In this document: positions 5,680 to 23,504 of the stretch, in pieces
How positions within the stretch are numbered: position 1 is the first letter of the stretch
Layout of the letters: the number at the start of each line of letters is the position of its first letter
Source: Verrucomicrobiia bacterium
GTDB taxonomy: Bacteria; Verrucomicrobiota; Verrucomicrobiia; Limisphaerales; UBA11358
Length of the DNA stretch: 36,805 bases
NCBI GenBank assembly: GCA_036509625.1
Contig: DATCFH010000206.1
Coordinates: 1-36,805 of the forward strand
Direction: 5' to 3'
The notes under the pieces: generated by a model
The model's database searches: none
What the model was told of the DNA's origin: nothing
The model's input: the letters and a program-made list of their open reading frames with translations, nothing else
Program-made: the position numbers and the translations under genes

Positions 5680-6810
5680 TTAACGCGCGTTGACGGCGGC
5701 GGAAAACTTTTCCAGCGCATCGGCAAACTGTTTTGGATCGAAATCAGGAATGGACTGCGCAAGTTTGAATAATTGGTTGAGTGAGGCTTGCACCGGCTCG
5801 TTATTTTTCAATTCCGGTAATGCGGCAACCAAACGGTCGAGCGCGAGCACTAGACGCTCGGCGCGGCGGGCTTGGTATTCATTGGAAAAGTCTGTATCAC
5901 CTCCGAACCCAAGATGATTCTTGTCTAAAAGTTGGTTCAGACATTTGCGTGAAAGAGCGGAAGTCCATTCGATATTAGCAGCAGCGTGAGCAAGCTGGTC
6001 GGCCCATTTTTGATTGCTCGCATGAGTTCCCATTGAATCTCTAACATCGGCAGGCAAGCTGGCATCTGCTCCATCTATCTGTTTCAAAACCCAGACCAGG
6101 GCTAACCAACGATTCTCCTGATTTTCCGTCGGTGAAGTTTCCTTGGCAAGTTGCCAGCTCATTTCGCGCAACGCTACCGCCTGTCCGACGAGCCACGCCT
6201 GCGCGCCATTGCCGTTTTTGTCCGCGCTCCAATGTTTTGGTTCGGCGACGCTTTGGCCGTCGAGTTCAAAAATTAATTCAGGATGACCGGCTTTGAGAAT
6301 GTCGGCATCCACATTCTGATGACACGCAACGCAAGTGTTCGCGCGGACGTAAAGATTTTGCAGGTCGCGCATTCCCGTCGCCGTGCGGTCGGCGTGCGTA
6401 TAATCCGTCCGCGTGTGCGAACGAATCCAGTTCTCCGCCGGGCCGTGGCAGCTTTCGCACGAAACACCTTCGCTCACCTTGAAATCTTCGCCGCGCAGAT
6501 TTTCCGGCACGTCATGCAGCGGCGCATGGCAGGTCGTGCAGCGCGCGTCCGCCGTCGCATCTTTGATTTGCAGCGCATCGGCAATTTGTTTTGCGCGCGC
6601 CGTCGTGAGCGTTGCCGCTGGTCGTTGCGAATGAAAATCTTTGAGCGACCAGACGAGGAACTGGTTTTGATTCTGGCCGCCGCCGCCGTGGCAACTGGAA
6701 TCGGCGCAGGAATTCGCGCCAAGAAATTTTGGCGGCGTGTCCGCGCCGCGCGTTGCGACGACGGCCAGCAGCAATCCGGCAATGAGAGGGCGACAAATTG
6801 TTTTACTCAC
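5680..6810 (-). CDS. Secreted multiheme c-type cytochrome (3 CxxCH plus 1 Cx4CH) with a heme-free helical C-terminal half
   Basis: Heme motifs are CADSSCH, CTTCH, CESCH and CVACH. I prefer the GTG start at 6810 (VSKTICRPLIAGLLLAVVATRGADT), which gives a signal peptide. The longer ORF to 6942 is Arg-rich and overlaps the divergent gene. Confidence 0.8.
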   Translation of the reverse strand: MSKTICRPLIAGLLLAVVATRGADTPPKFLGANSCADSSCHGGGGQNQNQFLVWSLKDFHSQRPAATLTTARAKQIADALQIKDATADARCTTCHAPLHDVPENLRGEDFKVSEGVSCESCHGPAENWIRSHTRTDYTHADRTATGMRDLQNLYVRANTCVACHQNVDADILKAGHPELIFELDGQSVAEPKHWSADKNGNGAQAWLVGQAVALREMSWQLAKETSPTENQENRWLALVWVLKQIDGADASLPADVRDSMGTHASNQKWADQLAHAAANIEWTSALSRKCLNQLLDKNHLGFGGDTDFSNEYQARRAERLVLALDRLVAALPELKNNEPVQASLNQLFKLAQSIPDFDPKQFADALEKFSAAVNAR

Positions 6811-6839
6811 GGCGACAAATTGGTTAATGGAGTGGCAGC

Positions 6840-8147
6840 GTGAATGCAACCCTAATTGATTCCCTGCGCGTCGCCAGCGGAGGCAGTTTGAGCTTCGCCG
6901 CCGGCATTGCGCTGCTCGCCGGACTGCTCGCGTGGCTCGCATTGGAAATTTTCCGTTCGCTCCTCCGCGTTTTGGCCGAGAACCGGCAGCAGCACGTCGC
7001 GCTGGAAAAACTGCACGCCCAACTCGCCGAAACGAAACTTCGTTGCCGCGAGGCCGAATCGGCGCAAACCGGCTGGAACGGTTTGCGGAAATTTTCCGTC
7101 GTCAAAAAAAATCCCGAGTGCGAGGACGTGAACGCATTTTATTTGAAGCCGCACGACGGCCGTCCGCTGCCGCAGTTCAAGCCCGGCCAGTATCTCACAT
7201 TTCAACTCGATGTGCCCGGACGCGATAAACCTTTGATTCGTTGTTACTCGCTTTCCGACAGTCCGCATCAAAAAGAGTATTACCGCGTCACCATCAAAAA
7301 AGAAAAAGCGCCGCCGGACAAACCGGAATTGCCACACGGTGCTGGTTCCAGTTTTTTCACCGACGTGGTGAAAGAAGGCGACATCCTCAACGTCAAAGCG
7401 CCGACCGGCCATTTCTTTTTGGACATGACGAAAACGAACCCCGTCGTGTTGCTCGCGGGCGGCGTCGGCATCACACCGATGTTGAGCATGGCCAGCGCGA
7501 TTGCGGCGAGCGGCTCGAAACGCGAGGCGTATTTTTTCTTTGGCGTCCGCAATGTCCGCGAACACATCCATAAAGCCGAACTGGAAAAACTGGCGGCGGA
7601 AAATGACAACATCCATTTGCACATCGCTTACAGCAAACCCGGTGAGCGCGATGTGAAAGGAAAAGACTTTCATCACGAAGGCCGCGTGGGCATTGAGCTT
7701 TTGAAGGAAATTTTGCCGTCGAACAATTTTGAATACTACCTTTGCGGCAGCGGCGCATTCATGAAAAGTCTGACGGACGGCCTCGAAGCGTGGGGCGTGC
7801 CGGACAGCGTCGTCCACTTCGAGGCGTTTGGCCCGGCGACGGTGAAGAAAAAAACGACCGCGCCATCGCCAAGTGAAACGGTTCATCTCGCAAAAATAAA
7901 TGTGACCTTCGCGCGCTCGAACAAGACGGTGCGCTGGGATCCGGCGGCGGAAAATATTTTGGAATTTGCCAAGGCGCAAGGTGTGAAGATTGATTCCGGC
8001 TGTTGCGCGGGCAGTTGCGGTTCGTGCGTCGTCGCCATCAAATCCGGCGACGTGGATTATTTGAAGAAGCCCGACGCCACGCCCGAAGCCGGCAGTTGTT
8101 TCACCTGCGTTTGCCGACCGAAAAACGATTTGGTTTTGGATGCTTAA
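6840..8147 (+). CDS. Membrane-anchored FAD/NAD(P)H oxidoreductase with a C-terminal plant-type 2Fe-2S ferredoxin domain
   Basis: Domain order is an N-terminal TM helix (LSFAAGIALLAGLLAWLALEIF), a coiled segment, the FAD motif RCYSLS, the NAD(P) motif GGVGITPMLSM, YLCGSGAFM, and the 2Fe-2S motif C-x4-C-x2-C...C (CCAGSCGSC...CVC). The start is a GTG at 6840. Confidence 0.85.
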   Translation: MNATLIDSLRVASGGSLSFAAGIALLAGLLAWLALEIFRSLLRVLAENRQQHVALEKLHAQLAETKLRCREAESAQTGWNGLRKFSVVKKNPECEDVNAFYLKPHDGRPLPQFKPGQYLTFQLDVPGRDKPLIRCYSLSDSPHQKEYYRVTIKKEKAPPDKPELPHGAGSSFFTDVVKEGDILNVKAPTGHFFLDMTKTNPVVLLAGGVGITPMLSMASAIAASGSKREAYFFFGVRNVREHIHKAELEKLAAENDNIHLHIAYSKPGERDVKGKDFHHEGRVGIELLKEILPSNNFEYYLCGSGAFMKSLTDGLEAWGVPDSVVHFEAFGPATVKKKTTAPSPSETVHLAKINVTFARSNKTVRWDPAAENILEFAKAQGVKIDSGCCAGSCGSCVVAIKSGDVDYLKKPDATPEAGSCFTCVCRPKNDLVLDA

Positions 8148-8165
8148 AAAAATTCCGAACTAAAA

Positions 8166-9890
8166 ATGCCCGCCGCCCCGACCATTCTCGAACGCCCGCA
8201 ACGCTGGGACGCCGCGTTCGACGCGAACATGACCGACGCGGATGTGGAGCGGTTGCTGGCCACCGCGCCGTTCAGCGGGATGGATGCGGAGAAATTTCCC
8301 AAACGCACGCCGCTTCGCGAAATCATCCGCAACGACATGCGCATCCTGAAGTTTCGCAAGGGCGAAATCATCATGCGCCAGGGCGATTACGGCACGTCGG
8401 CGTTTTTGATTTTGCAAGGCGCAGCGCGCGTGGTGTTAAAACCTGATCTCGCACCGTCGCTGCTGGGACGTCAGGCCACGAATAAAAAAGGCGTCTTCCG
8501 CACGCTCGCGCAACTTTGGAATCGTTCGCGTCCGCCGGAAATGTTGCCGCGCACCCTGCTCGGACAAAGTTCCGGCGTCAGCGCACGGCAAAACGAAAAA
8601 GAGACGCGCGTTTTTTTGCAGGACGTGCCGCGCATTTTGGACCAGCACCGCACGGCGCAGATGACCGCCGGCGAATTTTTCGGCGAGATTGCCGCGTTGA
8701 GCCGCATGGCGCGCACGTCCACAATTTTTGCCGACAGCGACGACGCAGAACTTTTGGAAATCCGCTGGCAGGGTCTGCGCGACCTGATGAAATACGACGA
8801 CGCGCTGCGCGCGCACATCAACAGGATTTACCGCGAACGCGCGCTGGCTTCGTATCTTCGCGCCACGCCGCTCTTCAAAAATCTGTCAGAAGAACAGCTT
8901 GGTCGCGTGGCCGAGGCCGTGGAATTTTCGACTTACGGCGACTACGACTGGTCGGGCGAATACAAACGCCTCGCGCAATCCGGCAGCGTGCGCCCGGAGA
9001 AAGAGCCTGTCATTGTTGGCGAAGGTGATTATCCAAACGGCATCGTGCTGTTGCGCGCCGGCTTCGCGCGCGTGAGCCAGAAATTCGGCGGCGGCGAACG
9101 CACGTTGAATTACATCGGCGCGGGACAGATTTTCGGCCTCAACGAAATCGCCCACAACTGGCGCAATAAAGATGCGGCGGTGAATTTTCAATTCTCGCTG
9201 CGCGCCATCGGCTACACGCATTTGCTCGTCGTGCCAACGCGCGTGATGGAAGAAATTGTTTTGCCGTCGCTGCCGAAAAACGAACTGCCGCCGCTCGTCG
9301 CGAAGCATGAAGACGAGTTTGATTCCGCACCACCCGAAGTTGCCACGCGCGAAAAAGTCGGCGCAGAGATTTTGGAATTTCTCACCGAGAACCGTTTTTT
9401 TAACGGCACGGCTTCGATGGTGATTGACCTCGACCGTTGCACGCGCTGCGACGATTGCGTGCGCGCCTGCGCCTCGACGCACGACAATAATCCGCGCTTT
9501 CTGCGCCACGGGCCGAGCGCCGGGCGGCTCATGATTGCCAATGCCTGTATGCACTGCGCCGATCCGGTTTGCATGATCGGCTGTCCGACTGGCGCGATTC
9601 ACCGCGAGTCTTTTGCCGGACAGGTTGTTATCAATCCCACGACGTGCATCGGCTGCAAATCCTGTTTCACGAACTGTCCTTACGACGCCATCCGCATGGT
9701 CGAGGCGCGCGACGAACGCGGTGAATTTCTCATGGATCAGGAAATGAAACCCATCACGAAGGCGACCAAATGTGACCTCTGCGTGGAAAACCACGGCGGC
9801 CCCGCCTGCGAACGCGCGTGCCCGCACGGCGCGCTCACGCGGATGAATTTGAACAATCTGGATTCGCTTTCGAAGTGGTTAAAGTTATGA
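8166..9890 (+). CDS. Tandem cyclic-nucleotide-binding domains fused to a DmsB/NrfC-type ferredoxin module with four [4Fe-4S] motifs
   Basis: There are two cNMP-binding-like domains. The first carries GEFFGEIAALSRMARTSTIFA and the second carries GQIFGLNEIA. The four Cys clusters are CTRCDDCVRAC, CMHCADPVCMIGCP, CIGCKSCFTNCP and CDLCVENHGGPACERACP. Confidence 0.85.
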   Translation: MPAAPTILERPQRWDAAFDANMTDADVERLLATAPFSGMDAEKFPKRTPLREIIRNDMRILKFRKGEIIMRQGDYGTSAFLILQGAARVVLKPDLAPSLLGRQATNKKGVFRTLAQLWNRSRPPEMLPRTLLGQSSGVSARQNEKETRVFLQDVPRILDQHRTAQMTAGEFFGEIAALSRMARTSTIFADSDDAELLEIRWQGLRDLMKYDDALRAHINRIYRERALASYLRATPLFKNLSEEQLGRVAEAVEFSTYGDYDWSGEYKRLAQSGSVRPEKEPVIVGEGDYPNGIVLLRAGFARVSQKFGGGERTLNYIGAGQIFGLNEIAHNWRNKDAAVNFQFSLRAIGYTHLLVVPTRVMEEIVLPSLPKNELPPLVAKHEDEFDSAPPEVATREKVGAEILEFLTENRFFNGTASMVIDLDRCTRCDDCVRACASTHDNNPRFLRHGPSAGRLMIANACMHCADPVCMIGCPTGAIHRESFAGQVVINPTTCIGCKSCFTNCPYDAIRMVEARDERGEFLMDQEMKPITKATKCDLCVENHGGPACERACPHGALTRMNLNNLDSLSKWLKL

Positions 9891-10702
9891 AACGCTTTCG
9901 CCGACAACTTGCTTTTGGTTTGTTCGCGCTGATTGCCGCAACGGTGGGCGCGTTGTGGTTGAATGGAAAATCCAACACGCTGCCGAACTACGCCTATCTC
10001 ACCGGCTGGGCGCTGCTCGCGGGGATGTTCGTGTTGACAATCTACAACGTGCGGAAAAAACTGCCGTTCCTGCCGCTCGGCAAATCCGAGACGTGGTTGC
10101 AAATCCACATCTATCTCGGCTTTTTCACGACGCTGCTGTTTCTCATCCACCTGAATTTCCGCGCGCCGCACGGCTGGTTTGAGGTCGTGCTGGCTTGGCT
10201 ATTCGTGCTGGTCAGCGGCAGTGGCATGGTCGGATTATTTTTCAGCCGCGTGCTGCCACGTCGGCTGGCGACGCGCGGCGGCGAGGTCATTTTTGAAAAA
10301 ATTCCCGCTTTACGCCACGCGTTAAAAACCGAGGTGGAAAAACTTTCGCTCGGCGCGGATGCAAAATCTTTGGTCATCGCGGAATTTTACACGAAGCGGC
10401 TAGCGCCGTTTTTCTCCGGCCCAAAAAATTTCTGGAACCATCTGGCTGAATCGCGTCGCGAAGTCAGCGCGCTGCTCGCGGAACTCGAAGACCTGCGCCG
10501 TTTCGCCAACGACATGGAAAAAGAAAAAATCGAACGACTTGGCGCGCTCGTCCGCCAAAAAGACGGGCTGGATTATCACCGCGCGTTGCAACTCGCGTTG
10601 CGATTGTGGTTGTTTGTCCACATTCCGCTGACTTACGGGCTGTTAATTTTCACCGCGCTGCACATCATTTTGGTCTTCGGATTTTCGGGAGGTGCGCGAT
10701 GA
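9887..10702 (+). CDS. Integral membrane protein with two H-x13-H helices; putative di-heme cytochrome b-type subunit
   Basis: The ATG at 9887 forms an ATGA overlap with the upstream stop. I predict about 5 TM helices. Helix 3 (IHIYLGFFTTLLFLIHL) and the last helix (VHIPLTYGLLIFTALHI) each carry two His residues 14 positions apart. A helical loop of about 100 aa separates TM4 from TM5. Confidence 0.65.
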   Translation: MKRFRRQLAFGLFALIAATVGALWLNGKSNTLPNYAYLTGWALLAGMFVLTIYNVRKKLPFLPLGKSETWLQIHIYLGFFTTLLFLIHLNFRAPHGWFEVVLAWLFVLVSGSGMVGLFFSRVLPRRLATRGGEVIFEKIPALRHALKTEVEKLSLGADAKSLVIAEFYTKRLAPFFSGPKNFWNHLAESRREVSALLAELEDLRRFANDMEKEKIERLGALVRQKDGLDYHRALQLALRLWLFVHIPLTYGLLIFTALHIILVFGFSGGAR

Positions 10703-12270
10703 GCGAGCAACTGCCAGCACCGGATTTCGACGCCCAAAATTATGCGCGGCCAAATCAAAACTGGATTTGCGGTCATGCGTGCGAAGGCAATGCGTGTCGG
10801 CCCGGTCCGGATCAAAAAGGAAATTGCTGCGCGACGGCGGAATGCAAACCAGTTCTCAAAATCAAACCAGGTGAAACGAAAGGCCGCTGGGTTTGCACGC
10901 GCACTGGCGGAGAATGTGAATCTGGTCCGTTGCCGGACGGAAGCTGCTGCAATCCTATTCCAAAATGTTCGCCCGTGCCGACGCTACGCGTGTGGCGCGG
11001 GCGCGTAACGCTCGCGGTCATCGCCGCAGCGTGCGCGGTGTTGCTGGTCGTGCTCGGCAATCCGCCGTGGCGGAATAATTTCATCAGCCCCGGAATAGTT
11101 TCTAGTCCGCATTCCGGCGCGGCGTTCGCGGCACTGGCGTTGACGAATCGTCTGAATCAAAGTTGTGGTGCGTGCCACGTTGCGGGAAATTCCGGGCCGA
11201 ATGAAATGGTGAGTGTTGCGTTGCACGCGGAGCCGGGAATTTTGGATTTGAAAAAACTCGTGTTCGCCAAAGCGGCCGGGCCGACGGCGATTGACGAGGC
11301 GTGTTTGAAATGTCACGCGGGCAAAAATGTTCATCAGCCGGATGCGCCGCAAATTTCCTGCTCGTTCTGCCATGTAGAGCATCAGGGAATAAAAATCGCG
11401 GCGACGATGGATGCTAACTGCAATTTTTGCCACGGCAATGCGGCGAAAATGCCGGCGGCCATTGGCGGAAAACCGTTTGCGCTCGTCCACCATTTTGCGG
11501 ACGACCATCCGCAGTTTCGTTTTCTCACGGAAAAATTACGCGACCCGGATACTTTGAAATTCAATCACGCGCTGCATCTGACGGGCACGACGATTCCGAA
11601 TTTGCCGGGTGGCTCAAAGTTGGATTGTGTGTTTTGTCATTCGCCGGATGCGGCGGGCGCGTTTATGAAGCCGGTGGCGTTTGAGAAAAATTGCCGCGTG
11701 TGTCACTCGCTGCAATTTGATCCGGCGACGCCGGAACTGCAATTGCCGCACGGCAGCGCGGAATTTGTGTCGGCGTATCTGCGGAGTCTGCCAAAGCAGT
11801 ATTTGGATTTGGCGGCGAAGCAAAATGTCGCGGACGGAAATAATTTTGTTCAGCAGAAGCTGGCGGATTTGCGGACGCAATTTGGCAGCGGTGAGGATTT
11901 GGAAAAACGCATTTTCTTCAGCACGGCGACGACTGCGCCGGAAATAAATGTGGGGAATGTGAGCGGCGTAACGCGCGCGATTTTTCCCGGCTGCGCGTAT
12001 TGTCACGAAGTAAAATCAATTGGCGGCTTGCCGGAAATCACGAAGCCAATTCAAACGGAACACTGGCTGGTGCAGGCGAAATTTAATCACGCGGCGCACG
12101 CGAACATTGCCTGCACGCAGTGCCATGACGCGGTTCACAGCAAGGATACGGCGGATATTTTGTTGCCGCCGAAGGAAACGTGCGTGACGTGTCACAGTCC
12201 GCGCGGCGGCGTGGCGGACACTTGCGCGGAGTGTCATACTTACCATAAGCTGCCGGTCGCGGCGCAGTGA
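10699..12270 (+). CDS. Membrane-anchored decaheme c-type cytochrome with a Cys-rich N-terminal domain
   Basis: The ATG at 10699 forms an ATGA overlap with the upstream stop. The ten CxxCH motifs are CGACH, CLKCH, CSFCH, CNFCH, CVFCH, CRVCH, CAYCH, CTQCH, CVTCH and CAECH. One TM helix (VTLAVIAAACAVLLVVL) is preceded by RVWRGR. The roughly 95-aa N-terminal region has 11 Cys. Confidence 0.85.
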   Translation: MSEQLPAPDFDAQNYARPNQNWICGHACEGNACRPGPDQKGNCCATAECKPVLKIKPGETKGRWVCTRTGGECESGPLPDGSCCNPIPKCSPVPTLRVWRGRVTLAVIAAACAVLLVVLGNPPWRNNFISPGIVSSPHSGAAFAALALTNRLNQSCGACHVAGNSGPNEMVSVALHAEPGILDLKKLVFAKAAGPTAIDEACLKCHAGKNVHQPDAPQISCSFCHVEHQGIKIAATMDANCNFCHGNAAKMPAAIGGKPFALVHHFADDHPQFRFLTEKLRDPDTLKFNHALHLTGTTIPNLPGGSKLDCVFCHSPDAAGAFMKPVAFEKNCRVCHSLQFDPATPELQLPHGSAEFVSAYLRSLPKQYLDLAAKQNVADGNNFVQQKLADLRTQFGSGEDLEKRIFFSTATTAPEINVGNVSGVTRAIFPGCAYCHEVKSIGGLPEITKPIQTEHWLVQAKFNHAAHANIACTQCHDAVHSKDTADILLPPKETCVTCHSPRGGVADTCAECHTYHKLPVAAQ

Positions 12271-12279
12271 TTATTTATT

Positions 12280-13308
12280 TCAGAAACGGACGGTGAGATT
12301 CAATCCACCACCGGCGTTGAGCGTATCGCTGTTCTGCACATAGAAACCGTCGGTCTTCAAAATGTCGTAGCTGACGTAGCCGCGCAGGGTGACGTAGTCG
12401 TTGAGTGGAATATAAAGCGCGAGGCCGAAGGAGTTCAAATAATCATCGCGCCAAGTGGTGGTGAAATGAGTTTGTTGAAAACGGTAGGACGGCTGCAAAA
12501 TCACATGACTGCACAAACGCCAACTGCCGGCGACGACGAGGCTGTTATCCATGCGGTTGTTAAAATTGCTGCCGTTCAGCGGCGGATTGTTCGCGGTGTC
12601 GGTCAGGCGAGCATCGCCTTCGTATCCAATGGAAATGGCGGTTTTATCACTCGTAAAGAGATCGCGGCGGATCGCCCAGTTCGGGACGTATTCGTTATAA
12701 AATTGGTCGGTGTTTTGATCGTCGTTGAGCTGGCGATAAAAACCGCCAGCGGTGAAAGTCCAATTTTGTTTGCTCCATGACACGTCGCTGAAAATGGTCA
12801 TGGCGTTGAAATCAAATTGGTCGAGATTGGCGCGGCTGAAGGTATGGGTGTTGAGATTGTAAGCATCCACCGTTTGCGGACCGCTCAAACCGTAGTTGAA
12901 CCATTGCTGCTGGAAGCCGAGGCGAGGCGCGAGTTTTCCGTCGGCAAAATCATACGCGGTCGGCGCGAGCGCAGCTTGCACGGTGCTGACGAGAACATCA
13001 GCGCCTTGTTTCTTCTGATTCGCGAGGAACATATTATCCGTATAAAAATACTGCGCGTCGGCAAACGCCTCGATGTAGGTGCGGCGCGTTTTGGTTTGAA
13101 GGACGGATTGCGGGCCGACATCGCTGGATTCACCGGCGTAAAGTTCCGGCACGGCGTTCGTGGCAATCATCATTTGCGCGGCCTGATCAAGCTGGTGGCG
13201 TTGCTGGACGGAATCCACCTGCTGACTGGCGTTCGGCATTTGCGCGAAGGCGGTCACGCTCGCGACCAACCCAATTGCGCCCGTGAGAAAATATTTTTTT
13301 AGGCTCAT
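12280..13308 (-). CDS. Outer-membrane beta-barrel protein (porin-like)
   Basis: Signal peptide MSLKKYFLTGAIGLVASVTAFAQ, starting at the ATG at 13308. Alternating amphipathic strands rich in Tyr, Gly, Asn and Asp, with the terminal sequence GGGLNLTVRF ending in Phe. Confidence 0.65.
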   Translation of the reverse strand: MSLKKYFLTGAIGLVASVTAFAQMPNASQQVDSVQQRHQLDQAAQMMIATNAVPELYAGESSDVGPQSVLQTKTRRTYIEAFADAQYFYTDNMFLANQKKQGADVLVSTVQAALAPTAYDFADGKLAPRLGFQQQWFNYGLSGPQTVDAYNLNTHTFSRANLDQFDFNAMTIFSDVSWSKQNWTFTAGGFYRQLNDDQNTDQFYNEYVPNWAIRRDLFTSDKTAISIGYEGDARLTDTANNPPLNGSNFNNRMDNSLVVAGSWRLCSHVILQPSYRFQQTHFTTTWRDDYLNSFGLALYIPLNDYVTLRGYVSYDILKTDGFYVQNSDTLNAGGGLNLTVRF

Positions 13309-13318
13309 AAAATAAAAA

Positions 13319-14194
13319 TTATCCACGGAATCCAATCGTGGTGGTGGGGCGGCCGCCGGGTCCGACGTTGCTAGGCGGTGGACCTGATTTGCTTTGATTC
13401 AGCGAATTGAACTGCCGGTTATTCAACGGCGGGTGCGCCGCCGTGTCGTAGGTGGCGGGGTCGAGCACGTTCTGGCCATTGCCGGGCGGCGATGGCGGCA
13501 GGAAAAATTCCGGCGGCTGGCCGGTATCGGACGACGCGCCGGATTTAATCTGGAAATCCTGATCTTGAATCGCCAGCAGAATCAGCGGCAACGAAGACAG
13601 GTCATGCGAAAAGCCTTTGACCAATTGCGAGCCGGCGACGAGCTTGTCCAAGTTGATGCTGAAAACCTTGCTGAATTCCGTTCCGCCCGGCAGCACGAAA
13701 ACTTCCTGGCCGGCTTTGAGCGTTACGGAATTTCCATTTGGCAAAGTAACTTTGCCTTTACCTTCCAGCAAAATTACTTTGAACCCGCCGCCGGTCGTGG
13801 CTGACATAATCAACGTCGTGCCGAGCACCGCCGCCGCCGCGCCGCCGGATTTGATTGTGCCGCCGCCGAGACCTTTCGGCGCGTGAAAGAGCACGTTGCC
13901 CTGTTCCAAATTCAAAGTGCGTCCGCTGTCCGCATAGGAAAAAACCGTGTTCGCGCCGACGCGTGTAATTGTCTTATCCGGCGCGGTGAGTTCCGCGCGC
14001 GACTGCGGGCCGGTGCGGACGCGCTGCGGCGCTTTCAAAATATCGCCCGACTTGGCCGTCGTGGCATCGCCAGTGGCAGACACCGTGTTCACGTCATTGA
14101 TGATTTCCGTGAACGTGCTTTCCGTCAACGGCGCGGCGTAAAGCGGCAACGCCAGTCCGGCGAGCGCGAACAGTAGCAAATATTTCGTCTTCAT
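13319..14194 (-). CDS. Secreted FecR-domain protein (paralog 2) with a Pro-rich C-terminal tail
   Basis: Signal peptide MKTKYLLLFALAGLALPLYA, with the ATG at 14194. The FecR-like core is RVRTGPQSRAELTAPDKTITRVGANTVF...LEQGNVLFH...GGAAAAVLGTT...VTLKAGQEVFV. By eye it is roughly half identical to the upstream paralog. Confidence 0.8.
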   Translation of the reverse strand: MKTKYLLLFALAGLALPLYAAPLTESTFTEIINDVNTVSATGDATTAKSGDILKAPQRVRTGPQSRAELTAPDKTITRVGANTVFSYADSGRTLNLEQGNVLFHAPKGLGGGTIKSGGAAAAVLGTTLIMSATTGGGFKVILLEGKGKVTLPNGNSVTLKAGQEVFVLPGGTEFSKVFSINLDKLVAGSQLVKGFSHDLSSLPLILLAIQDQDFQIKSGASSDTGQPPEFFLPPSPPGNGQNVLDPATYDTAAHPPLNNRQFNSLNQSKSGPPPSNVGPGGRPTTTIGFRG

Positions 14195-14229
14195 ATTATT
14201 GAAATTTCTAGGGGAAATGTTTGGGCTTG

Positions 14230-15072
14230 TCAATTGCCGACGTCGCTGTGAAAACCACCATACCAAGGCTGATTGGGAAAAGTTTGCGTCGGGGAAACAT
14301 AAACCTGCGTGCGGTCGGGCGCATTCACCATCCACGGCGGAAGCCGTCGGACAGGCATGATGTCCAGCCCCAGACTGGCCGTCAGAAACGACACGAGGTT
14401 CGGCAACGTGCCAGCGAGAATCTGGTCGTTTTGCAATTGGATTGCGGTGGTGATGAACGGCAGCGACGACAACGGATTTGAAAAGCCCGTGACCAACAAC
14501 AGGCGGGAAACAAGTTGCTCCAGATTAAAAACCATTATGGCGCTGAACTCATTTCCATCCGGCGACACAATCACCATCTGCCCGGCCTCCAGCAAAATGT
14601 GCGTATTATTTTTCAACGTCACCTGCACATGCCCTTCGAGATCGAGAATTTTGAAACGGCCGTCCGGCAGCACCGCGCAAACCATCGTCGTTCCCAGCAC
14701 CGCCGCCGCCGTGCCGCGATACCGAACCGTTCCGCCGCCAACGCCAGCCGGCGGATGAAACAACACGCTGCCCTTTTCCAATAGAATATTTCTTCCGCCC
14801 GGCTCAAAAGTAAAAACCGTGTTCGCGCCGACGCGCGTAATGGTTTGATCCGGCGCGGTCATTTCCACGCGCGACGCCGGGCCGGTGCGAACCAAATCCG
14901 GCACTTTGAAAACCGTGTTCGTCACGGCGGGCGTCACGGATTTATTGGCGGCGGCGAGCACATCTGCCGTGCGGATAATTTCCGTGAAAGTGCTTTCTGT
15001 CAGCGGGGTCACTGCCAGCGCCGATACGCGGGTGCAAACGGCCAAGCCGGCCAGAAGAGAAAAAGTTTTCAT
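14230..15072 (-). CDS. Secreted FecR-domain protein (paralog 1)
   Basis: Signal peptide MKTFSLLAGLAVCTRVSALA. The FecR-like core is LVRTGPASRVEMTAPDQTITRVGANTVF...LEKGSVLFH...GTAAAVLGTT...ILLEAGQMVIV. Confidence 0.8.
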   Translation of the reverse strand: MKTFSLLAGLAVCTRVSALAVTPLTESTFTEIIRTADVLAAANKSVTPAVTNTVFKVPDLVRTGPASRVEMTAPDQTITRVGANTVFTFEPGGRNILLEKGSVLFHPPAGVGGGTVRYRGTAAAVLGTTMVCAVLPDGRFKILDLEGHVQVTLKNNTHILLEAGQMVIVSPDGNEFSAIMVFNLEQLVSRLLLVTGFSNPLSSLPFITTAIQLQNDQILAGTLPNLVSFLTASLGLDIMPVRRLPPWMVNAPDRTQVYVSPTQTFPNQPWYGGFHSDVGN

Positions 15073-15138
15073 GTTTGCACCGCCGTGGGATTACAAGACT
15101 AACTTAACACCTGTATTAAATTGTCAAGGTTGCGCCCG

Positions 15139-17262
15139 ATGAATAACCTGCGGCAGCATTACGTTTTCACCCAAAACCAAACGATGAAACCCGCCGCCCG
15201 CCGCACCGCCATCGTCCTCGCCATCTGCGCGGTCTGCACGCTGGTATTTTTGTTTTTGTGGCAGCGCGGGTTTGTGCCGTTGCAGGAAATGGAGTTTTCC
15301 GCGCAGGACTGGCAGGCTCGGCTCGGCCGCAAAACGCCAATGGATGACCGCCTCGTCCTCATCGGCATTGACAAGCCGGTTTATGCCGCCGACTTCAGCG
15401 ACGAAGAAATTCAGCGCGAACCCGTCCTGAAAAATTTGCAAAATACTTTTCCGTGGTCGCGCGCCGTCTGGGCGCGGCTCATCGAAAAACTTTCGGACGC
15501 GGGCGCAAAAGTAATTTTATTCGACTTGGTTTTCGCCTCGCAAAACGATGGCGACGACGCCCTCCGCGCCGCGCTCGAAAAGTATAAAGACCGCGTTGTC
15601 ATTGGCTATAACATCAGCGCCAAAAAAACCGGGCGCGGCGATTTCATGGAGCTGGAATTCCCCAATTCGTCCGTCGTGCAGACGAGCGAAACCAATTCGC
15701 CGGTGGCCGACGACCGGCTCGGTTACGTCAACATCTGGCCGGATTTCGACGGCATTTTGCGGCGCGCGCGCTATCGCCAGACCGGCGCACAAATCGACGA
15801 CATTCTGCCCGCCGAAACTATTCTCGAATCCATGGACGCCCGCGCGCTCCGCAAATTTGGCCGCGCTGATCTCATTCCCAGCGGCTTTGGCGAACAACTG
15901 TTTCGCTACACCGCGCGTCCCGGCGACGGCTACAAACCGATTCCCATTGGCGACGTGCTTTCGCCCGAGCTGTGGGAAAAGACCTATCACAACGGAAAAG
16001 ATTTTGCGGGCAAAATAATTCTCGTTGGCCCGACGGCGGAAATTTTTCAAGACGTTCACGACACGCCGTTCGATCCGAAAGCGATGGCCGGCCCGGAAAT
16101 TCATCTGCAAATTATCAACGCCGCCTTGCACGGCGAACTGCTCCGCGAACTGCCGCCGTTCGCCGCGAGTTTGTTCATTGCGCTCGCCGGATTTATTGCC
16201 GCCGGCTTTTGCCAGTTCATCCGCGCGCCGTTCAAGCGGCTGCTCCTGATTTTTCTTTTGGGCGGCGCATTTTTTCTCGCTTCCATCATTTGTTACAACC
16301 ACGCCAACCTCGTTTTGCCCGTGATGCCGCCGCTGCTCGTGCTGATGCTCATCGGCCTCGCAACCTTCGTTTACGATTTTGTCGTCGAGCGGTTGGAGCG
16401 CATGAAGTTGAAGCACACGATGGGACTATATTTTTCGCCGCGCGTGCTCGAAGCCGTGCTGGCCGATCCCGGCTCAATGGAACCGCGCCGCGCCAACGTC
16501 GTTTTGCTGTTGACCGATTTGCGTAATTCCACGCCGCTCGCCGAGGCGCTCGGTCCGAAAGGAATGTTCGATCTGCTCAATCAAGTTTTTGAAGCGCAAA
16601 CGAGCGCCATCATGGGCGAAGAAGGCAACCTCGAACATTTTCTCGGCGACCAGTTTTTAAGTTACTGGGGCGCGCCGCAAAAACAGGCGGACGCCGCCGA
16701 CCGCGCCAGCCGCGCCGCGCTGAAACTTATTTCCGCCATGGAAAATCTGCGCGCCACGCTCACGCCGGAAGTGCAAAAATTATTTGGTTACGGCGTCGCG
16801 CTGCACAGCGGCGGCGTGTTGGTGGGCAATAAAGGTTCCGCGTTGCGACTCGATTACGGCCTCGTCGGCGACACGGTGAACGAGGCCGCGCGCGTTGAGG
16901 CGCTTACGAAATACTACGGCGCGCGCCTGCTCGTGACGCGCGACGCGTTCGCGCAATTCAGCGCGCAGGGACAGCATCGCCTGATTGACCGCGTCATCGT
17001 GAAAGGCAAAAGCGAGCCGGTGGAATTGTTCGAGTGCGAAAATCCCTGCACGCCGCCGAACTTCGCGGAGATTTGCGCGCGCTACAAAAAAGCTTTCGAC
17101 GAATATCACTTTGGCCGTTTCGTCGAGGCGCAGCTAATGTTTGCCGCCATCGGCAAGGAATTTTCCGACGGACCGAGCAAAACCTTGTCCGCCCGCTGCG
17201 CCACGCTCGTCATTCATCCGCCGGAAAACTGGAACGGCATCTGGAAAATGGATGCAAAATAA
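15139..17262 (+). CDS. CHASE2 sensor domain / class III adenylate-guanylate cyclase
   Basis: An N-terminal TM helix is followed by a periplasmic region of about 300 aa (LVLIGIDKP..., ILFDLVF, GYVNIWPDFDGILRR, ILVGPTAE), about 3 TM helices and a class III cyclase domain (VVLLLTDLRNST, FLGDQFLSYWGAP, GLVGDTVNEAARVE). The start is uncertain: ATG at 15139, ATG at 15184 (MKPAARR), or TTG at 15121. Confidence 0.85.
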   Translation: MNNLRQHYVFTQNQTMKPAARRTAIVLAICAVCTLVFLFLWQRGFVPLQEMEFSAQDWQARLGRKTPMDDRLVLIGIDKPVYAADFSDEEIQREPVLKNLQNTFPWSRAVWARLIEKLSDAGAKVILFDLVFASQNDGDDALRAALEKYKDRVVIGYNISAKKTGRGDFMELEFPNSSVVQTSETNSPVADDRLGYVNIWPDFDGILRRARYRQTGAQIDDILPAETILESMDARALRKFGRADLIPSGFGEQLFRYTARPGDGYKPIPIGDVLSPELWEKTYHNGKDFAGKIILVGPTAEIFQDVHDTPFDPKAMAGPEIHLQIINAALHGELLRELPPFAASLFIALAGFIAAGFCQFIRAPFKRLLLIFLLGGAFFLASIICYNHANLVLPVMPPLLVLMLIGLATFVYDFVVERLERMKLKHTMGLYFSPRVLEAVLADPGSMEPRRANVVLLLTDLRNSTPLAEALGPKGMFDLLNQVFEAQTSAIMGEEGNLEHFLGDQFLSYWGAPQKQADAADRASRAALKLISAMENLRATLTPEVQKLFGYGVALHSGGVLVGNKGSALRLDYGLVGDTVNEAARVEALTKYYGARLLVTRDAFAQFSAQGQHRLIDRVIVKGKSEPVELFECENPCTPPNFAEICARYKKAFDEYHFGRFVEAQLMFAAIGKEFSDGPSKTLSARCATLVIHPPENWNGIWKMDAK

Positions 17263-17384: not shown

Positions 17385-20300
17385 ATGCATAGCCAGTTGC
17401 CTGCCCATCTCATCGCGCACATCAACGTCAAACTCGCCCTCATCGGCTGCTCGCCCGTGCCGCTCGAAGGCGACAAGGAATTCGTCGAGATCGCCGCCGC
17501 GATGGCCGCGCAATCGCGCGAAAAAGACCGGCTGCTCGGCCAGCATCTTTGTCCCGCCGACGCGCGCATCCAGACTTTTCTCTACGATTATTTGCAGGAC
17601 ATTCCCGCGCCGAAATTGCCCGCGCGCACGTTCACGCTCGACCGCGCGGGTCTCGCGCGGGTGCTTTCGCTGCCGGTTGACCGCAATGATTTTTCATCCG
17701 ACATCATCAATTCCTACCGCGTCAAACAAGGCGTTTTACACAATCCGAAAAGCGACCGCCGCACGACCGCCGGAATTTTTCACGTCTGCGAAGGCGGTTT
17801 GCCGATTCCCGACGACAAGCTCGGCGTGCCGAAAGCTACGTTCGCAAAAATCGTCCAGCACGCGCTCACGCCGCCACGCGAACTGCTGAAATTGCCGTTC
17901 ACTTCCACGCAGCCGCAGCCGGCGGAATGTTTCGTCACGCTGTTGATCCGCCCGCTCGTGTGTCCCGAAGTTCCCGGCTTCACCAAAAAGAAAACGATGG
18001 AAGTCCGCTTCTTCGTGCCGGGCAATCTCGTGAGCAATTTGGATTTCGTCGAAGCCATTTTTGAAAACGGCGGCGACCCGTTGCTGCCGGAAAATGACGC
18101 CGCACTCGACACGGAACATTGGAGCGGCCACACCGGCTGCATCATTCTTGCGCCGCATTTGACGAAGCTCACGAAAAAATCCGTCGGTTTGCCGGATTGG
18201 GATTCCGCCACGGAACGCCAGCGGCGCGACGGGATGTGCTGGAAAAAAGAAGACGAACTTTACAACGGCGGCAACGCTTTCAAGCTGACCTGCCGTGACG
18301 AAACGGGCGTCATTGTTACGATTATCGCCGACAATTATTTCGGCTATTGCAAAAAAGAAGTGAAGACGCAGTTGAGTTACGCCGCCAATTTGTTCGGTCT
18401 CGCCGAAGAAGAACACGCGGGCGGCGCGCTCGTTTTTCAGAGCTACGATCTCGGCGAGGAATTCAGCGGCGATGTCCACGTCCGTCGGCTCGGCCATCGT
18501 TTTGAGGAAGTGGCCGCCCTATTCGCCGGCGCGCTAGAGGTGAAGCCGGAAGGCTACGCGGTGGACAAAAAATTTCCGGAGATTCTCTACATTCCGCACG
18601 ACGCGCATTTTGATTTGAAGTCGCAAAAAGTTTCGTGGACGAATGCGACGGGCGATCACGCCATCAAACTTTCGCCGGAAAAAACTTACGTCCGCCCGTC
18701 CGGCTACAAGGTCAAAATGGAAAAACCGCCGGGCGCGGGACGTCAATGGCGGCTCGTCGGCACGGTCGCCGAAGGAACTTTCTGCCACAAGCCCTGCACG
18801 GTTTCCGGCGGCGGCAAATCGGAAATTTCAAAACCGATCACGGACGCAATTTTGACCGGCCCGGTTTTTGTTTCGGATTTGAAAAACGATTTTGACCGCG
18901 TCGAAGAATTGATTGACCGCGATTACTCAAATCGTTTTGCCGACCAGGCGCACACCGACGCGCGCACCGTGCTTTCGCCCGAACGCTCGCTTGGCTCCGT
19001 CATCAAACTGCTCACGCCGGACGAACACGATTACACGCCGAATTACAATACCTGGCTCGCGTCGTTGCCGCAGCACGTCAAGGAACTCGCCTTCGTCGTG
19101 AAGCGCTATTACAAGCCGGAATGGGGCGCGGACTGGCGCGCGCATTTCAGCGTGGACATCATCAACGGCATACCCGGCAACGAACTCAAGTGCGACAACC
19201 GCAAGCTCGTCACGACTTATTTGCGCGTCGGTTTCGACGGCGACGGCGCGTGGCGCACGTTTGGTTTGCGCAAGGATTTTTATCCCGCCGTCAAAGTGCA
19301 GATGGAAGACGATATCACCGCGTCCACCGTTGTGCCACCGGGTTTGCTGGAAGATTTGCCCGCCAACATTGATGAAAACTGCTCGCTTAAGTTTGCCCAG
19401 AACTGTGAACAGCGTTTATTCCAGCGCCCCGACGACGCGATTCATCGCGGCTACGACAAGCAGGCGGAACTGGATTTCGTGCAGCCGGAAAATTTCTTTT
19501 CCAATTACGAACCGCTCACGCCGAAAAATGCGCGCGACATGGTGGAGGACGCGCTGGGCTTCCACGAGTTCACCGAGCCGATGCAAAGGTTCGTGGGCGA
19601 AGTCGCGGCGACGGGCGCGCCGGATTATTTTGTCTGCACCGCGAATCCGCGCATCGTGGACGGCAAGCCGACGAAAAATCCACGCTACTTGCAAAAGCGT
19701 CCCGACCTCGTGCGCGCGAGCGAAACGTATCTGGCGGAAATTTCCGCGCGCCTGCGCCGCCGCGTGCCGCCGGAAAAACCGTTATACACACCGGTCACCG
19801 CCGTGTTGCCGGGACGCCGCAACAATCCGCCGGAAACCGGCATCCGCGCGCTGGCGTGCTACAACCCGATTCATTTCATGGAATTGCCGGAATTGTTCAT
19901 GGAAGTGATTTGCAGCATGACCGGCAAATCGCCTTCGACCACCGGCGCGGGTTCGGAAGGCGCGCTGACGAAAGGGCCGTTCAACGCGCTGCCGCCGATC
20001 ATTGACCTGAACAACGCGCTCGTGTCATTTATTCTTACGGGACAAAACGCGTTTGTGACCGCCGCCGGTTACGTCGGGCCAAATCTGCGTGTGGATCACG
20101 ATGTCAGTTTGATTGTGCCGGAAATCTGGTGTCGCCTGACCGCCGAGGAACGCAATCCGAAATTTCTCATCGCGAACCATTTTCTCGACAAGTGCGCGGA
20201 CTTTGAGCACGACGGTAAAAAAGTTTTGGCGAGCCGGCTCGGCTGGCGCATCAACGCGCGCTTCGTCCACAATTTTTTTGGCCGTATGTTCAACCATCCG

Positions 20301-20801
20301 CAGGCCGTGTTCACCGAGGCGATGCTCAAGCCGGAATTACAGGGCAAAGACATTTTTGCGGATGGCATGGACAACATCGTGGCCACGCAAAAACGCGTCG
20401 CAAAAATGTATTTCGCCGACGGCAGCATCGCGCAGGCGTGCCCGCCGTTGCAGGCGTTGCTGCACATCATGCTCAACGACGAATGGGACGGGAAACAGCT
20501 CGACCATGCGGAGGTTCGGAAACTTTTTACGCGCGAAAACCTGCTGGCAAGCCCGTGGTATGCGGCGCGTTTGGCGGCGAAACAAAAAGTGGATCGTAAT
20601 CTCTGGAAGCGCCACGTCGAATGCTTGAACCAGTTTTTACGCCGCCCGAATTACACGGACGTTTCGGAAAAGCTCGGCATCGCGGACCGCCTCACGGCCG
20701 CGCGAAAAACTTTGGAAGCGGTCGAGTCTGCGGATTATCCGAAGCAACTGGTGGGAACCATCGGTGCGGAGCCGATTGAAAATTACGCGCGCGCAAGTTA
20801 G
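17385..20801 (+). CDS. Large conserved cytoplasmic protein (1138 aa); possibly PPi-dependent phosphoenolpyruvate carboxykinase (tentative)
   Basis: The uninterrupted 1138-codon ORF is very likely real. No signal peptide or TM helix is apparent. A P-loop-like CTVSGGGKSEISK resembles the kinase-1a loop of PEPCKs, and IIADNYFGYCKKE sits where ATP-PEPCKs have IGDDEHGW. The size matches the roughly 130-kDa PPi-PEPCK family. The functional call rests on memory only. Confidence 0.45.
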   Translation: MHSQLPAHLIAHINVKLALIGCSPVPLEGDKEFVEIAAAMAAQSREKDRLLGQHLCPADARIQTFLYDYLQDIPAPKLPARTFTLDRAGLARVLSLPVDRNDFSSDIINSYRVKQGVLHNPKSDRRTTAGIFHVCEGGLPIPDDKLGVPKATFAKIVQHALTPPRELLKLPFTSTQPQPAECFVTLLIRPLVCPEVPGFTKKKTMEVRFFVPGNLVSNLDFVEAIFENGGDPLLPENDAALDTEHWSGHTGCIILAPHLTKLTKKSVGLPDWDSATERQRRDGMCWKKEDELYNGGNAFKLTCRDETGVIVTIIADNYFGYCKKEVKTQLSYAANLFGLAEEEHAGGALVFQSYDLGEEFSGDVHVRRLGHRFEEVAALFAGALEVKPEGYAVDKKFPEILYIPHDAHFDLKSQKVSWTNATGDHAIKLSPEKTYVRPSGYKVKMEKPPGAGRQWRLVGTVAEGTFCHKPCTVSGGGKSEISKPITDAILTGPVFVSDLKNDFDRVEELIDRDYSNRFADQAHTDARTVLSPERSLGSVIKLLTPDEHDYTPNYNTWLASLPQHVKELAFVVKRYYKPEWGADWRAHFSVDIINGIPGNELKCDNRKLVTTYLRVGFDGDGAWRTFGLRKDFYPAVKVQMEDDITASTVVPPGLLEDLPANIDENCSLKFAQNCEQRLFQRPDDAIHRGYDKQAELDFVQPENFFSNYEPLTPKNARDMVEDALGFHEFTEPMQRFVGEVAATGAPDYFVCTANPRIVDGKPTKNPRYLQKRPDLVRASETYLAEISARLRRRVPPEKPLYTPVTAVLPGRRNNPPETGIRALACYNPIHFMELPELFMEVICSMTGKSPSTTGAGSEGALTKGPFNALPPIIDLNNALVSFILTGQNAFVTAAGYVGPNLRVDHDVSLIVPEIWCRLTAEERNPKFLIANHFLDKCADFEHDGKKVLASRLGWRINARFVHNFFGRMFNHPQAVFTEAMLKPELQGKDIFADGMDNIVATQKRVAKMYFADGSIAQACPPLQALLHIMLNDEWDGKQLDHAEVRKLFTRENLLASPWYAARLAAKQKVDRNLWKRHVECLNQFLRRPNYTDVSEKLGIADRLTAARKTLEAVESADYPKQLVGTIGAEPIENYARAS

Positions 20802-23225: not shown

Positions 23226-23504
23226 TTAATTCATCAACGCCCGCCGTCCGTGACAGTTGCGCCCGTCGAGCAAAAACAAATCGTCGAGTGGAGCGGCTTT
23301 ACGGGTCGCACCGAGCCGGTGGAGTCGGTGGAAATTCGCCCGCGCGTTTCCGGTTACATTCAGGAAGTGCGTTTTCAATCCGGTCAGTTGGTGAAGAAAG
23401 GCGACGTGCTTTCCGTCATTGATCCGCGCTGGCATCAGGCAGTGTTCGATCAGCGCCAGGCTGAATATGGCCACGCCAAAAGCGAGAACGATCGCACCGC
23501 TTAA
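23226..23504 (+). pseudogene. Remnant of an RND/MFP efflux periplasmic adaptor gene, truncated at both ends
   Basis: The fragment translates as [75 protein letters not shown]. This matches the N-terminal lipoyl/hairpin-start region of AcrA/MexA-type adaptors. An in-frame stop at 23223-23225 removes the signal/lipobox region. The frame ends after about 90 codons, overlapping the stop of the SecA-like gene. Confidence 0.6.

Follow-up and report, generated by a model that had tools for sequence, protein, structure and literature searches.

The 36,805-nucleotide stretch analyzed here, hereafter the window, is contig DATCFH010000206.1 (positions 1 to 36,805; assembly GCA_036509625.1) of a Verrucomicrobiia bacterium from the order Limisphaerales. 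At 8166..9890 on the + strand, it encodes a 574-residue protein (ATG start, TGA stop) in which two cyclic-nucleotide-binding (CNB) domains precede a ferredoxin module with four [4Fe-4S] cluster motifs. The first domain, CNB-1, carries a canonical phosphate-binding cassette (PBC), the stretch of the protein in which conservation is highest. From these sequence features, it seems to us an evenly balanced proposition that the protein acts as the cytoplasmic Fe-S subunit of an electron conduit, that CNB-1 binds a cyclic nucleoside monophosphate (cNMP), and that the CNB tandem modulates electron flow or docking. The combination of CNB domains and ferredoxin has already been described as PtdE, a product of the multiheme ptdABCDEFG operon (bioRxiv 10.1101/2023.11.21.568154); thus, the present protein is a new verrucomicrobial member of a named family.

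The domain order of the PtdE-like protein is an N-terminal motif, CNB-1, CNB-2, a linker, and the ferredoxin module. The Pfam family cNMP_binding (PF00027) reaches 80.2 bits, for a cut-off of 27.5 (E 1.1e-22), and its three matching stretches make up two domains, the match to CNB-1 being split because of a 69-residue insertion in its β4-β5 loop (residues 93-161; 8442..8648, +). Alignments to structures in the PDB skip this insertion, which occurs across the family. An AlphaFold2 model built on an alignment of 91 sequences was confident throughout, with a predicted local distance difference test score (pLDDT) of 92.8 and a predicted template modeling score (pTM) of 0.89. Its best fold matches in the PDB were the tandem CNB-A/B domains of the regulatory subunits of PKA (PKA-R) and of PKG (E 1e-17 to 1e-12). 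A preliminary description of this DNA had placed two CNB domains in front of a four-cluster ferredoxin, and the Pfam matches, four Cys motifs, and PKA-R/PKG fold matches together bear out this arrangement. A CRP/FNR-type transcription factor was considered and rejected, as no helix-turn-helix family was matched in Pfam or NCBIfam and the C-terminus is a ferredoxin module. With no signal or Tat peptide in its sequence, the protein is predicted to be cytoplasmic. Existing annotation consists of the name "4Fe-4S dicluster domain-containing protein" at NCBI and a composite name at JGI on homologs that are 83-94% identical.

CNB-1 spans residues ~23-235 (8232..8870, +), as delimited from Pfam, the secondary structure of the model, and PDB alignments, and comprises a β-barrel and the B/C helices, interrupted by the insertion. 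Its cassette, FFGEIAALSRMARTSTIFA (residues 172-189; 8679..8732, +), has Glu174 and Arg183-Thr184 at the canonical positions. The string GEFFGEIAALSRMARTS, in which the preliminary description had recognized a canonical cassette, lies at residues 169-185, and alignment to characterized cassettes confirmed that reading: the CNB-1 cassette can be aligned gap-free with those of Plasmodium PKG and PfPKA-R, E174 falling on their Glu and R183-T184 on their Arg-Ser/Ala. The segment FFGEIAALSRMARTS thereby contains both the F-G-E motif and an Arg-Thr/Ser pair nine residues past the Glu. Conservation was assessed in 79 syntenic orthologs, which are 51-95% identical and come from Verrucomicrobiota, Planctomycetota, and Alphaproteobacteria. 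All 79 retain F172, G173, E174, A177, R180, and R183, while position 184 is Thr or Ser in 75 of them. The loss of the Glu and Arg contacts from both domains, named at the outset as an observation that would speak against nucleotide sensing, is accordingly not what the orthologs display, E174 and R183 being present in 79/79. In the subset of orthologs at ≤70% identity, the cassette had a mean column identity of 0.87; the Fe-S module reached 0.82, and the remaining segments ranged over 0.46-0.65.

CNB-2 (residues ~236-368; 8871..9269, +; best Pfam stretch 279-364) is conserved and non-canonical. The equivalent of its cassette was located at residues 320-350 (9123..9215, +) by alignment to PKG I and T. 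thermophilus CRP and by conservation. It opens with the string GQIFGLNEIA (residues 320-329), which the preliminary description had taken as a possible sign of degeneration. L325 aligns with the Glu of both PKG I and T. thermophilus CRP, and this position is L, F, Y, or I in 78/79 orthologs. In addition, ~10 residues are inserted ahead of a conserved R346-A347-x-G349, and so neither the canonical Glu nor the canonical Glu-to-Arg spacing is found. The non-canonical character of CNB-2 therefore stands; the term "degenerate", however, is too strong, given that G324, R302, T313, and G349 never vary and that E327 and R346 each occur in 78/79 orthologs. CNB-2 is not decaying; the most fitting description is that of a conserved CNB domain with a non-canonical site, which may or may not bind a ligand.

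The invariant R302 and T313 of CNB-2, in a conserved domain that nonetheless lacks the canonical Glu, would suit another ligand, such as a nucleoside, a nicotinamide or flavin nucleotide, or a redox or energy metabolite, in which case regulation would be metabolic rather than dependent on a second messenger. Fold matches of the model include trypanosome PKA-R structures that bind inosine or guanosine rather than cyclic AMP (cAMP) (ranks 28-29 and 45-50), and the cyclase encoded next to the operon, discussed below, has non-standard specificity residues. Against this alternative, which we regard as distinctly unlikely, CNB-1 has a complete Glu...Arg-Thr cassette with the spacing of PKA, PKG, and HCN-type sites, and the trypanosome nucleoside binders differ at these very positions. 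The title of PDB entry 6h4g lists the introduced changes E311A, T318R, and V319A, which presumably restore a canonical cassette.

Ahead of CNB-1 lies the motif RPQRWDxPF (residues 10-18; 8193..8219, +), identified by its conservation. R13 is kept in 78/79, W14 in 76/79, and D15 in 70/79 of the syntenic orthologs, and the motif is also present in distant representatives of the family. By analogy, its position recalls that of the inhibitor segment of PKA-R.

The output of the protein is a ferredoxin module of the HycB/HydN/DmsB type (residues 417-560; 9414..9845, +) with 16 Cys in four complete motifs: C425/428/431/435, C461/464/469/473, C494/497/500/504, and C536/539/548/552. In a set of 91 diverse full-length relatives, every one of these Cys is present in 88 or more. 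Several Fer4 families of Pfam match the protein, Fer4_11 over residues 456-557. NCBIfam and PDB sequence searches group residues 417-570 with HydN, HycB3, the AegA N-terminus, DmsB, DsrO, and NrfC, and HycB3 (7qv7_A) aligns over all four Cys motifs in the PDB search (E 2e-17). Assignment to a named NCBIfam equivalog (HydN, DmsB, NrfC, DsrO, and others) was not obtained, the best score being 66.9 bits against cut-offs of 200-1003. Like subunits of the HycB/HydN/DmsB/NrfC type, the module aligns over four Cys motifs; unlike them, the protein has neither a Tat signal nor a catalytic partner, and it carries a 416-residue sensor region in front.

The gene sits in a tight redox operon, as the preliminary description had also proposed, with an FNR-like reductase gene upstream and genes for a membrane protein and a 10-heme cytochrome c downstream. 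The order reductase, PtdE-like protein, membrane protein, and decaheme cytochrome (ptdC-E-F-G) is conserved in ~70 of 80 loci across three phyla. The PtdC-like reductase (6840..8147, +; syntenic in 71/80 loci) ends 18 nt before the PtdE-like gene and consists of an N-terminal transmembrane (TM) helix, FAD_binding_6 and NAD_binding_1 domains, and a C-terminal plant-type [2Fe-2S] domain. According to NCBIfam, it is kin to the reductase modules of PaaE, GbcB, and Hmp. Modules of this kind draw electrons from NAD(P)H and hand them outward, to a partner, and the direction of electron flow in the present chain is presumed by analogy with this reductase family. The cofactors of the chain are likewise predicted from sequence motifs.

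Downstream, the PtdF-like membrane protein (9887..10702, +; 271 aa) has five long predicted TM helices. Its His pairs H74/H88 and H245/H259 are spaced i/i+14 on two predicted TM helices and are at least 96% conserved among 54 orthologs, a pattern that suggests a di-heme b protein with two bis-His hemes b. No Ferric_reduct match was obtained in Pfam, in which only DUF4405 matched weakly (E 0.009), and no sequence match was found in the PDB. A structure predicted from a 52-sequence alignment of database homologs (pLDDT 82.6) gave a best Foldseek hit of E 0.9 against the PDB. A relationship to NOX, FRD, or MsrQ proteins was thus rejected, nothing in the PDB being significant by fold or profile. 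The PtdG-like decaheme cytochrome c (10699..12270, +; syntenic in ~70/80 loci) follows, with a Cys-rich N-terminus, one TM helix, and ten CxxCH motifs. The Cys-rich stretch occupies ~100 residues before the TM helix (10699-11130, +) and matches no Pfam family, and a motif within the N-terminus, Y-x-RPNQ-x-W-x-CG, is kept in the orthologs of Hwanghaeella, Ca. Uabimicrobium, and Akkermansiaceae. This N-terminus could be a cytoplasmic metal-binding or docking domain. On the opposite strand, ahead of the reductase, lies a PtdD-like tetraheme cytochrome c (5680..6942, -; present in 65/80 loci), a divergently transcribed, c554-like protein with three CxxCH motifs and one CxxxxCH motif, whose true start is probably internal to the longest open reading frame (ORF).

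The stop codon of the PtdE-like gene overlaps the start of the membrane-protein gene in an ATGA (9887-9890), and the same overlap joins the PtdF-like stop to the PtdG-like start (10699-10702), suggesting translational coupling across all three genes. In two relatives (P0137 and P0161), the PtdE-like and membrane proteins are naturally fused. These observations suggest a stable stoichiometric complex and thereby argue against the proposal that the nucleotide controls assembly or oligomerization rather than gating, either by recruiting the ferredoxin to the membrane protein or by promoting HycB-like filaments. Among solved structures, the Fe-S module is closest in sequence to two filament-forming subunits of the hydrogen-dependent CO2 reductase, HycB3 and HycB4 (PDB 7qv7). 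The fold matches to PKA-R and PKG would also fit control of assembly, given the PKA-R paradigm of association and dissociation driven by nucleotide. Even so, we consider control of this kind decidedly improbable.

A candidate source of the cNMP is encoded beside the operon. Beyond the decaheme gene lie, on the - strand, genes for a putative outer-membrane β-barrel protein (12280..13335) with a signal peptide and the C-terminus ...LNLTVRF, for a FecR-domain protein with a signal peptide (13319..14335, true start probably near 14194; Pfam FecR E 2.5e-10), and for a second FecR-domain protein that is a paralog of the first (14230..15072; E 7.3e-6). The barrel-like protein, the first of this sensor module, has no Pfam or NCBIfam match and shows weak collinear similarity to the equivalent gene of locus L055. 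On the + strand, these three genes are followed by one whose product joins a CHASE2 sensor to a class III nucleotide cyclase (15121..17262; Pfam CHASE2 E 1.2e-40, Guanylate_cyc E 3.2e-11). With three secreted proteins (12280-15072, -) between operon and cyclase, the layout resembles FecA-FecR surface signaling with a cyclase rather than a sigma factor as output. FecR-domain proteins beside CHASE2 sensors have been reported in a Burkholderia operon (PMC5192318). What is new here is the cluster-adjacent module of barrel-like protein, FecR proteins, and CHASE2 cyclase in two verrucomicrobial orders: it adjoins ptdG both in Limisphaerales and in Akkermansiaceae/Verrucomicrobiaceae (L055, L057, and L067), with 28-39% identity between the orders.

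More broadly, flanks of at least 7 kb were available for 47 loci, and by raw count 26 of these have a class III cyclase within 8 kb downstream of the cluster. At locus L065, a CHASE2 cyclase directly follows ptdG, and after it comes an ABC transporter that carries a CNB domain at its C-terminus (14439-16676, +); at L062, a cyclase of a different type, with a Tll0287-like sensor, occupies the position directly after ptdG. L055 and L057 additionally encode an MscS-type channel with a CNB domain (in L055 at 12220-13725, -). The recurrence of varied cyclases and extra CNB effectors at one position points to a functional link, beyond inherited gene order alone. In metagenome-assembled genomes (MAGs) of Akkermansiaceae and Luteolibacter, the presence of CNB effectors beside a ptd-like cluster and a cyclase has the look of a local cNMP signaling island.

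Several observations weigh against nucleotide control of the conduit. Among 91 representatives of 50%-identity clusters from the wider family, Glu and Arg of CNB-1 are both kept in 63, whereas 28, mostly distant members, lack one or the other; therefore, nucleotide sensing is not universal in the wider family. No cyclase was found near the cluster in the loci from Alphaproteobacteria, planctomycetes, or Opitutaceae, and inheritance of the gene order may be part of the reason for the adjacency within Limisphaerales. The CHASE2 cyclase has His (LEHFLGD) and Gly (LDYGLVGD) at two substrate-specifying positions. The best match in the PDB is OaPAC, a photoactivated adenylyl cyclase with Lys and Thr at these positions, so that the specificity residues do not point to a product; the His/Gly pair is unchanged in 23 loci with this cyclase type, while the neighboring cyclases of the Akkermansiaceae type have Lys and Gly. 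Heme b is predicted in the PtdF-like protein from its His pattern, and the fold of this protein has no PDB match. Finally, the function of ptd "remains completely unknown" according to the authors who named it, and a porin-cytochrome complex was their suggestion (bioRxiv 10.1101/2023.11.21.568154).

Some of these points would suit a CNB tandem that has become a scaffold or docking module and no longer senses, its cassette being conserved through constraints of fold or interface. Such a module would keep the ferredoxin attached to both reductase and membrane protein, and the model predicts a protein that is compact as a whole. The conserved insertion in CNB-1 and the non-canonical cassette of CNB-2 agree with this possibility, as do the loss of Glu or Arg from CNB-1 in distant representatives and the lack of a nearby cyclase at most non-verrucomicrobial loci. 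The strongest point against it is the invariance of the ligand-contacting E174 and R183, together with the near-invariance of T/S184. Moreover, conservation of the cassette exceeds that of the Fe-S module, a pattern typical of a working ligand site, and cyclases and other CNB effectors recur beside the cluster. On balance, a purely structural role for the tandem appears unlikely to us.

Regulation by a cyclic nucleotide, the reading that we favor, would place a sensor within a family whose operon has been named and not functionally characterized. Literature searches for a characterized CNB-ferredoxin protein or ptd operon returned only the preprint cited above. In it, the operon was described from the alphaproteobacterial lineage UBA11136 and other marine MAGs, with PtdA a pentaheme protein, PtdB a porin, PtdC an FAD/NAD(P) oxidoreductase, PtdD a periplasmic tetraheme protein, PtdE the CNB and Fe-S protein, PtdF a ferric reductase-like TM protein, and PtdG a decaheme protein (bioRxiv 10.1101/2023.11.21.568154). 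The protein studied here belongs with PtdE by its identical architecture and neighbor order (reductase, TM protein, and decaheme cytochrome). The PtdE orthologs of Rhodospirillaceae and Hwanghaeella are 52-53% identical to it, and in a Rhodospirillaceae MAG (L066), an ortholog of 53% identity is embedded in the complete ptdABCDEFG order. In contrast to the published operon, the window holds a ptdC-E-F-G core with the tetraheme ptdD on the opposite strand, and its host is verrucomicrobial. No ORF with five CxxCH motifs, as expected of PtdA, occurs anywhere in the window; nor was a PtdB-type porin found there, the sole barrel-like candidate (12280-13335) being unrelated in size and without detectable family. 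Furthermore, the preprint makes no mention of a cyclase module, and it gives PtdE two 4Fe-4S clusters, whereas the present sequence has four complete Cys motifs.

With the tandem CNB domains of PKA-R and PKG, the protein shares the fold and, in CNB-1, a gap-free cassette that keeps Glu and Arg-Thr/Ser; it differs from them in its low identity (~15%), the 69-residue insertion of CNB-1, the missing Glu of CNB-2, and an output that is an Fe-S module rather than a kinase. Bacterial CNB domains fused to non-transcriptional outputs are found in the SthK and MloK1 channels, the cNMP-EAL protein Bd1971, and a CNB-diguanylate cyclase (5h5o), and weak sequence matches to effectors of this kind were obtained. 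Unlike in these effectors, the output here is an electron-transfer module, which the literature search found in no characterized member. The export of electrons by NOX and ferric reductases offers a further analogy, since both join an NAD(P)H-flavin reductase to a membrane protein whose two His pairs are distributed over two TM helices. However, each ptd component is a polypeptide of its own, a ferredoxin stands between reductase and membrane protein, and the PtdF-like protein has neither a Ferric_reduct Pfam match nor a PDB fold match.

From these elements, the following mechanism can be proposed. The membrane-anchored PtdC-like reductase would pass electrons from NAD(P)H via FAD to its [2Fe-2S] cluster, from which they would enter the four [4Fe-4S] clusters of the PtdE-like protein and then the two putative hemes b of the PtdF-like protein, to be delivered at last to the periplasmic decaheme and tetraheme cytochromes c. 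CNB-1 would bind a 3',5'-cyclic nucleotide through its canonical cassette, and the rearranged PKA-R-like tandem may then alter the docking of the ferredoxin with its partners or the passage of electrons between them, with CNB-2 as a conserved non-canonical transducer or a site for a second ligand. Both the binding and its effect on electron transfer, that is, the gating step, are predictions from the sequence. In this lineage, the neighboring CHASE2 cyclase would probably supply the nucleotide, and signals from the envelope may reach this enzyme via the FecR proteins and the outer-membrane protein encoded beside it. The complete version of this scheme, in which the outer-membrane protein, FecR proteins, and CHASE2 cyclase form a trans-envelope sensor that makes the cNMP whose binding to CNB-1 opens or closes the conduit, is offered tentatively, and we consider it unlikely as a whole. 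Taken overall, the interpretation in the preliminary description is partly supported; the allosteric control of electron flow by cAMP or cyclic GMP with which it concluded is a step that we, too, infer from sequence, with indirect support from the recurrence of cyclases and further CNB effectors beside the cluster in Verrucomicrobiota.

The family is large and widespread, with 583 clusters at 50% identity reaching E < 1e-30 and members in Verrucomicrobiota, Planctomycetota, and Alphaproteobacteria. It has also been found in Nitrospirales and Gammaproteobacteria (bioRxiv 10.1101/2023.11.21.568154). Several relatives (P0125, P0130, P0213, and that of locus L048 at 7683-9695) carry an additional FHA domain, either N-terminal or internal; the FHA-bearing members include the ortholog in the complete genome of Ca. 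Uabimicrobium amorphum. The presence of an FHA domain on the same protein marks it as a signaling target, a point at which signals converge.

The remainder of the window (17.3-36.8 kb) encodes a UbiE methyltransferase, YgjP, a SecA-like protein, HlyD/TolC-like efflux components, and a radical SAM protein, with no evident link to the operon. Directly after the cyclase, a 1138-aa ORF (17385-20801, +) has no match in Pfam or NCBIfam and no tblastn match in 80 related loci. The SecA-like protein (23501-25489, -) has only 662 aa, with DEAD, preprotein-binding, and P-loop domains, the usual C-terminal region being apparently absent. In the efflux-like cluster, a GAF domain is fused to an HlyD-type membrane-fusion protein (27642-29495, -), and the same cluster includes an M50/HlyD-like protein and a TolC-like outer-membrane factor (30238-31995).

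The control of electron-transfer chains, whether respiratory or extracellular, is commonly attributed to gene expression or to the supply of substrate. In the chain proposed here, it is plausible from the sequence that a cNMP acts post-translationally on electron transfer from NAD(P)H to the periplasm. Tight control of such a chain would be expected, because to export electrons from NAD(P)H across the membrane would consume reducing power as well as membrane potential. With its invariant cyclic-nucleotide site, the ferredoxin subunit would provide a switch that acts directly and post-translationally on this flow. CNB domains are known in fusion with many outputs, to which an electron-transfer module would add a new kind. 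The hypothesis is open to direct experiment in cultured carriers of the family, namely Hwanghaeella grinnelliae and Ca. Uabimicrobium amorphum. If it is true, the PtdE-containing conduit would be the first electron-transfer chain gated by a second messenger, with control exerted inside the wire rather than by transcription.

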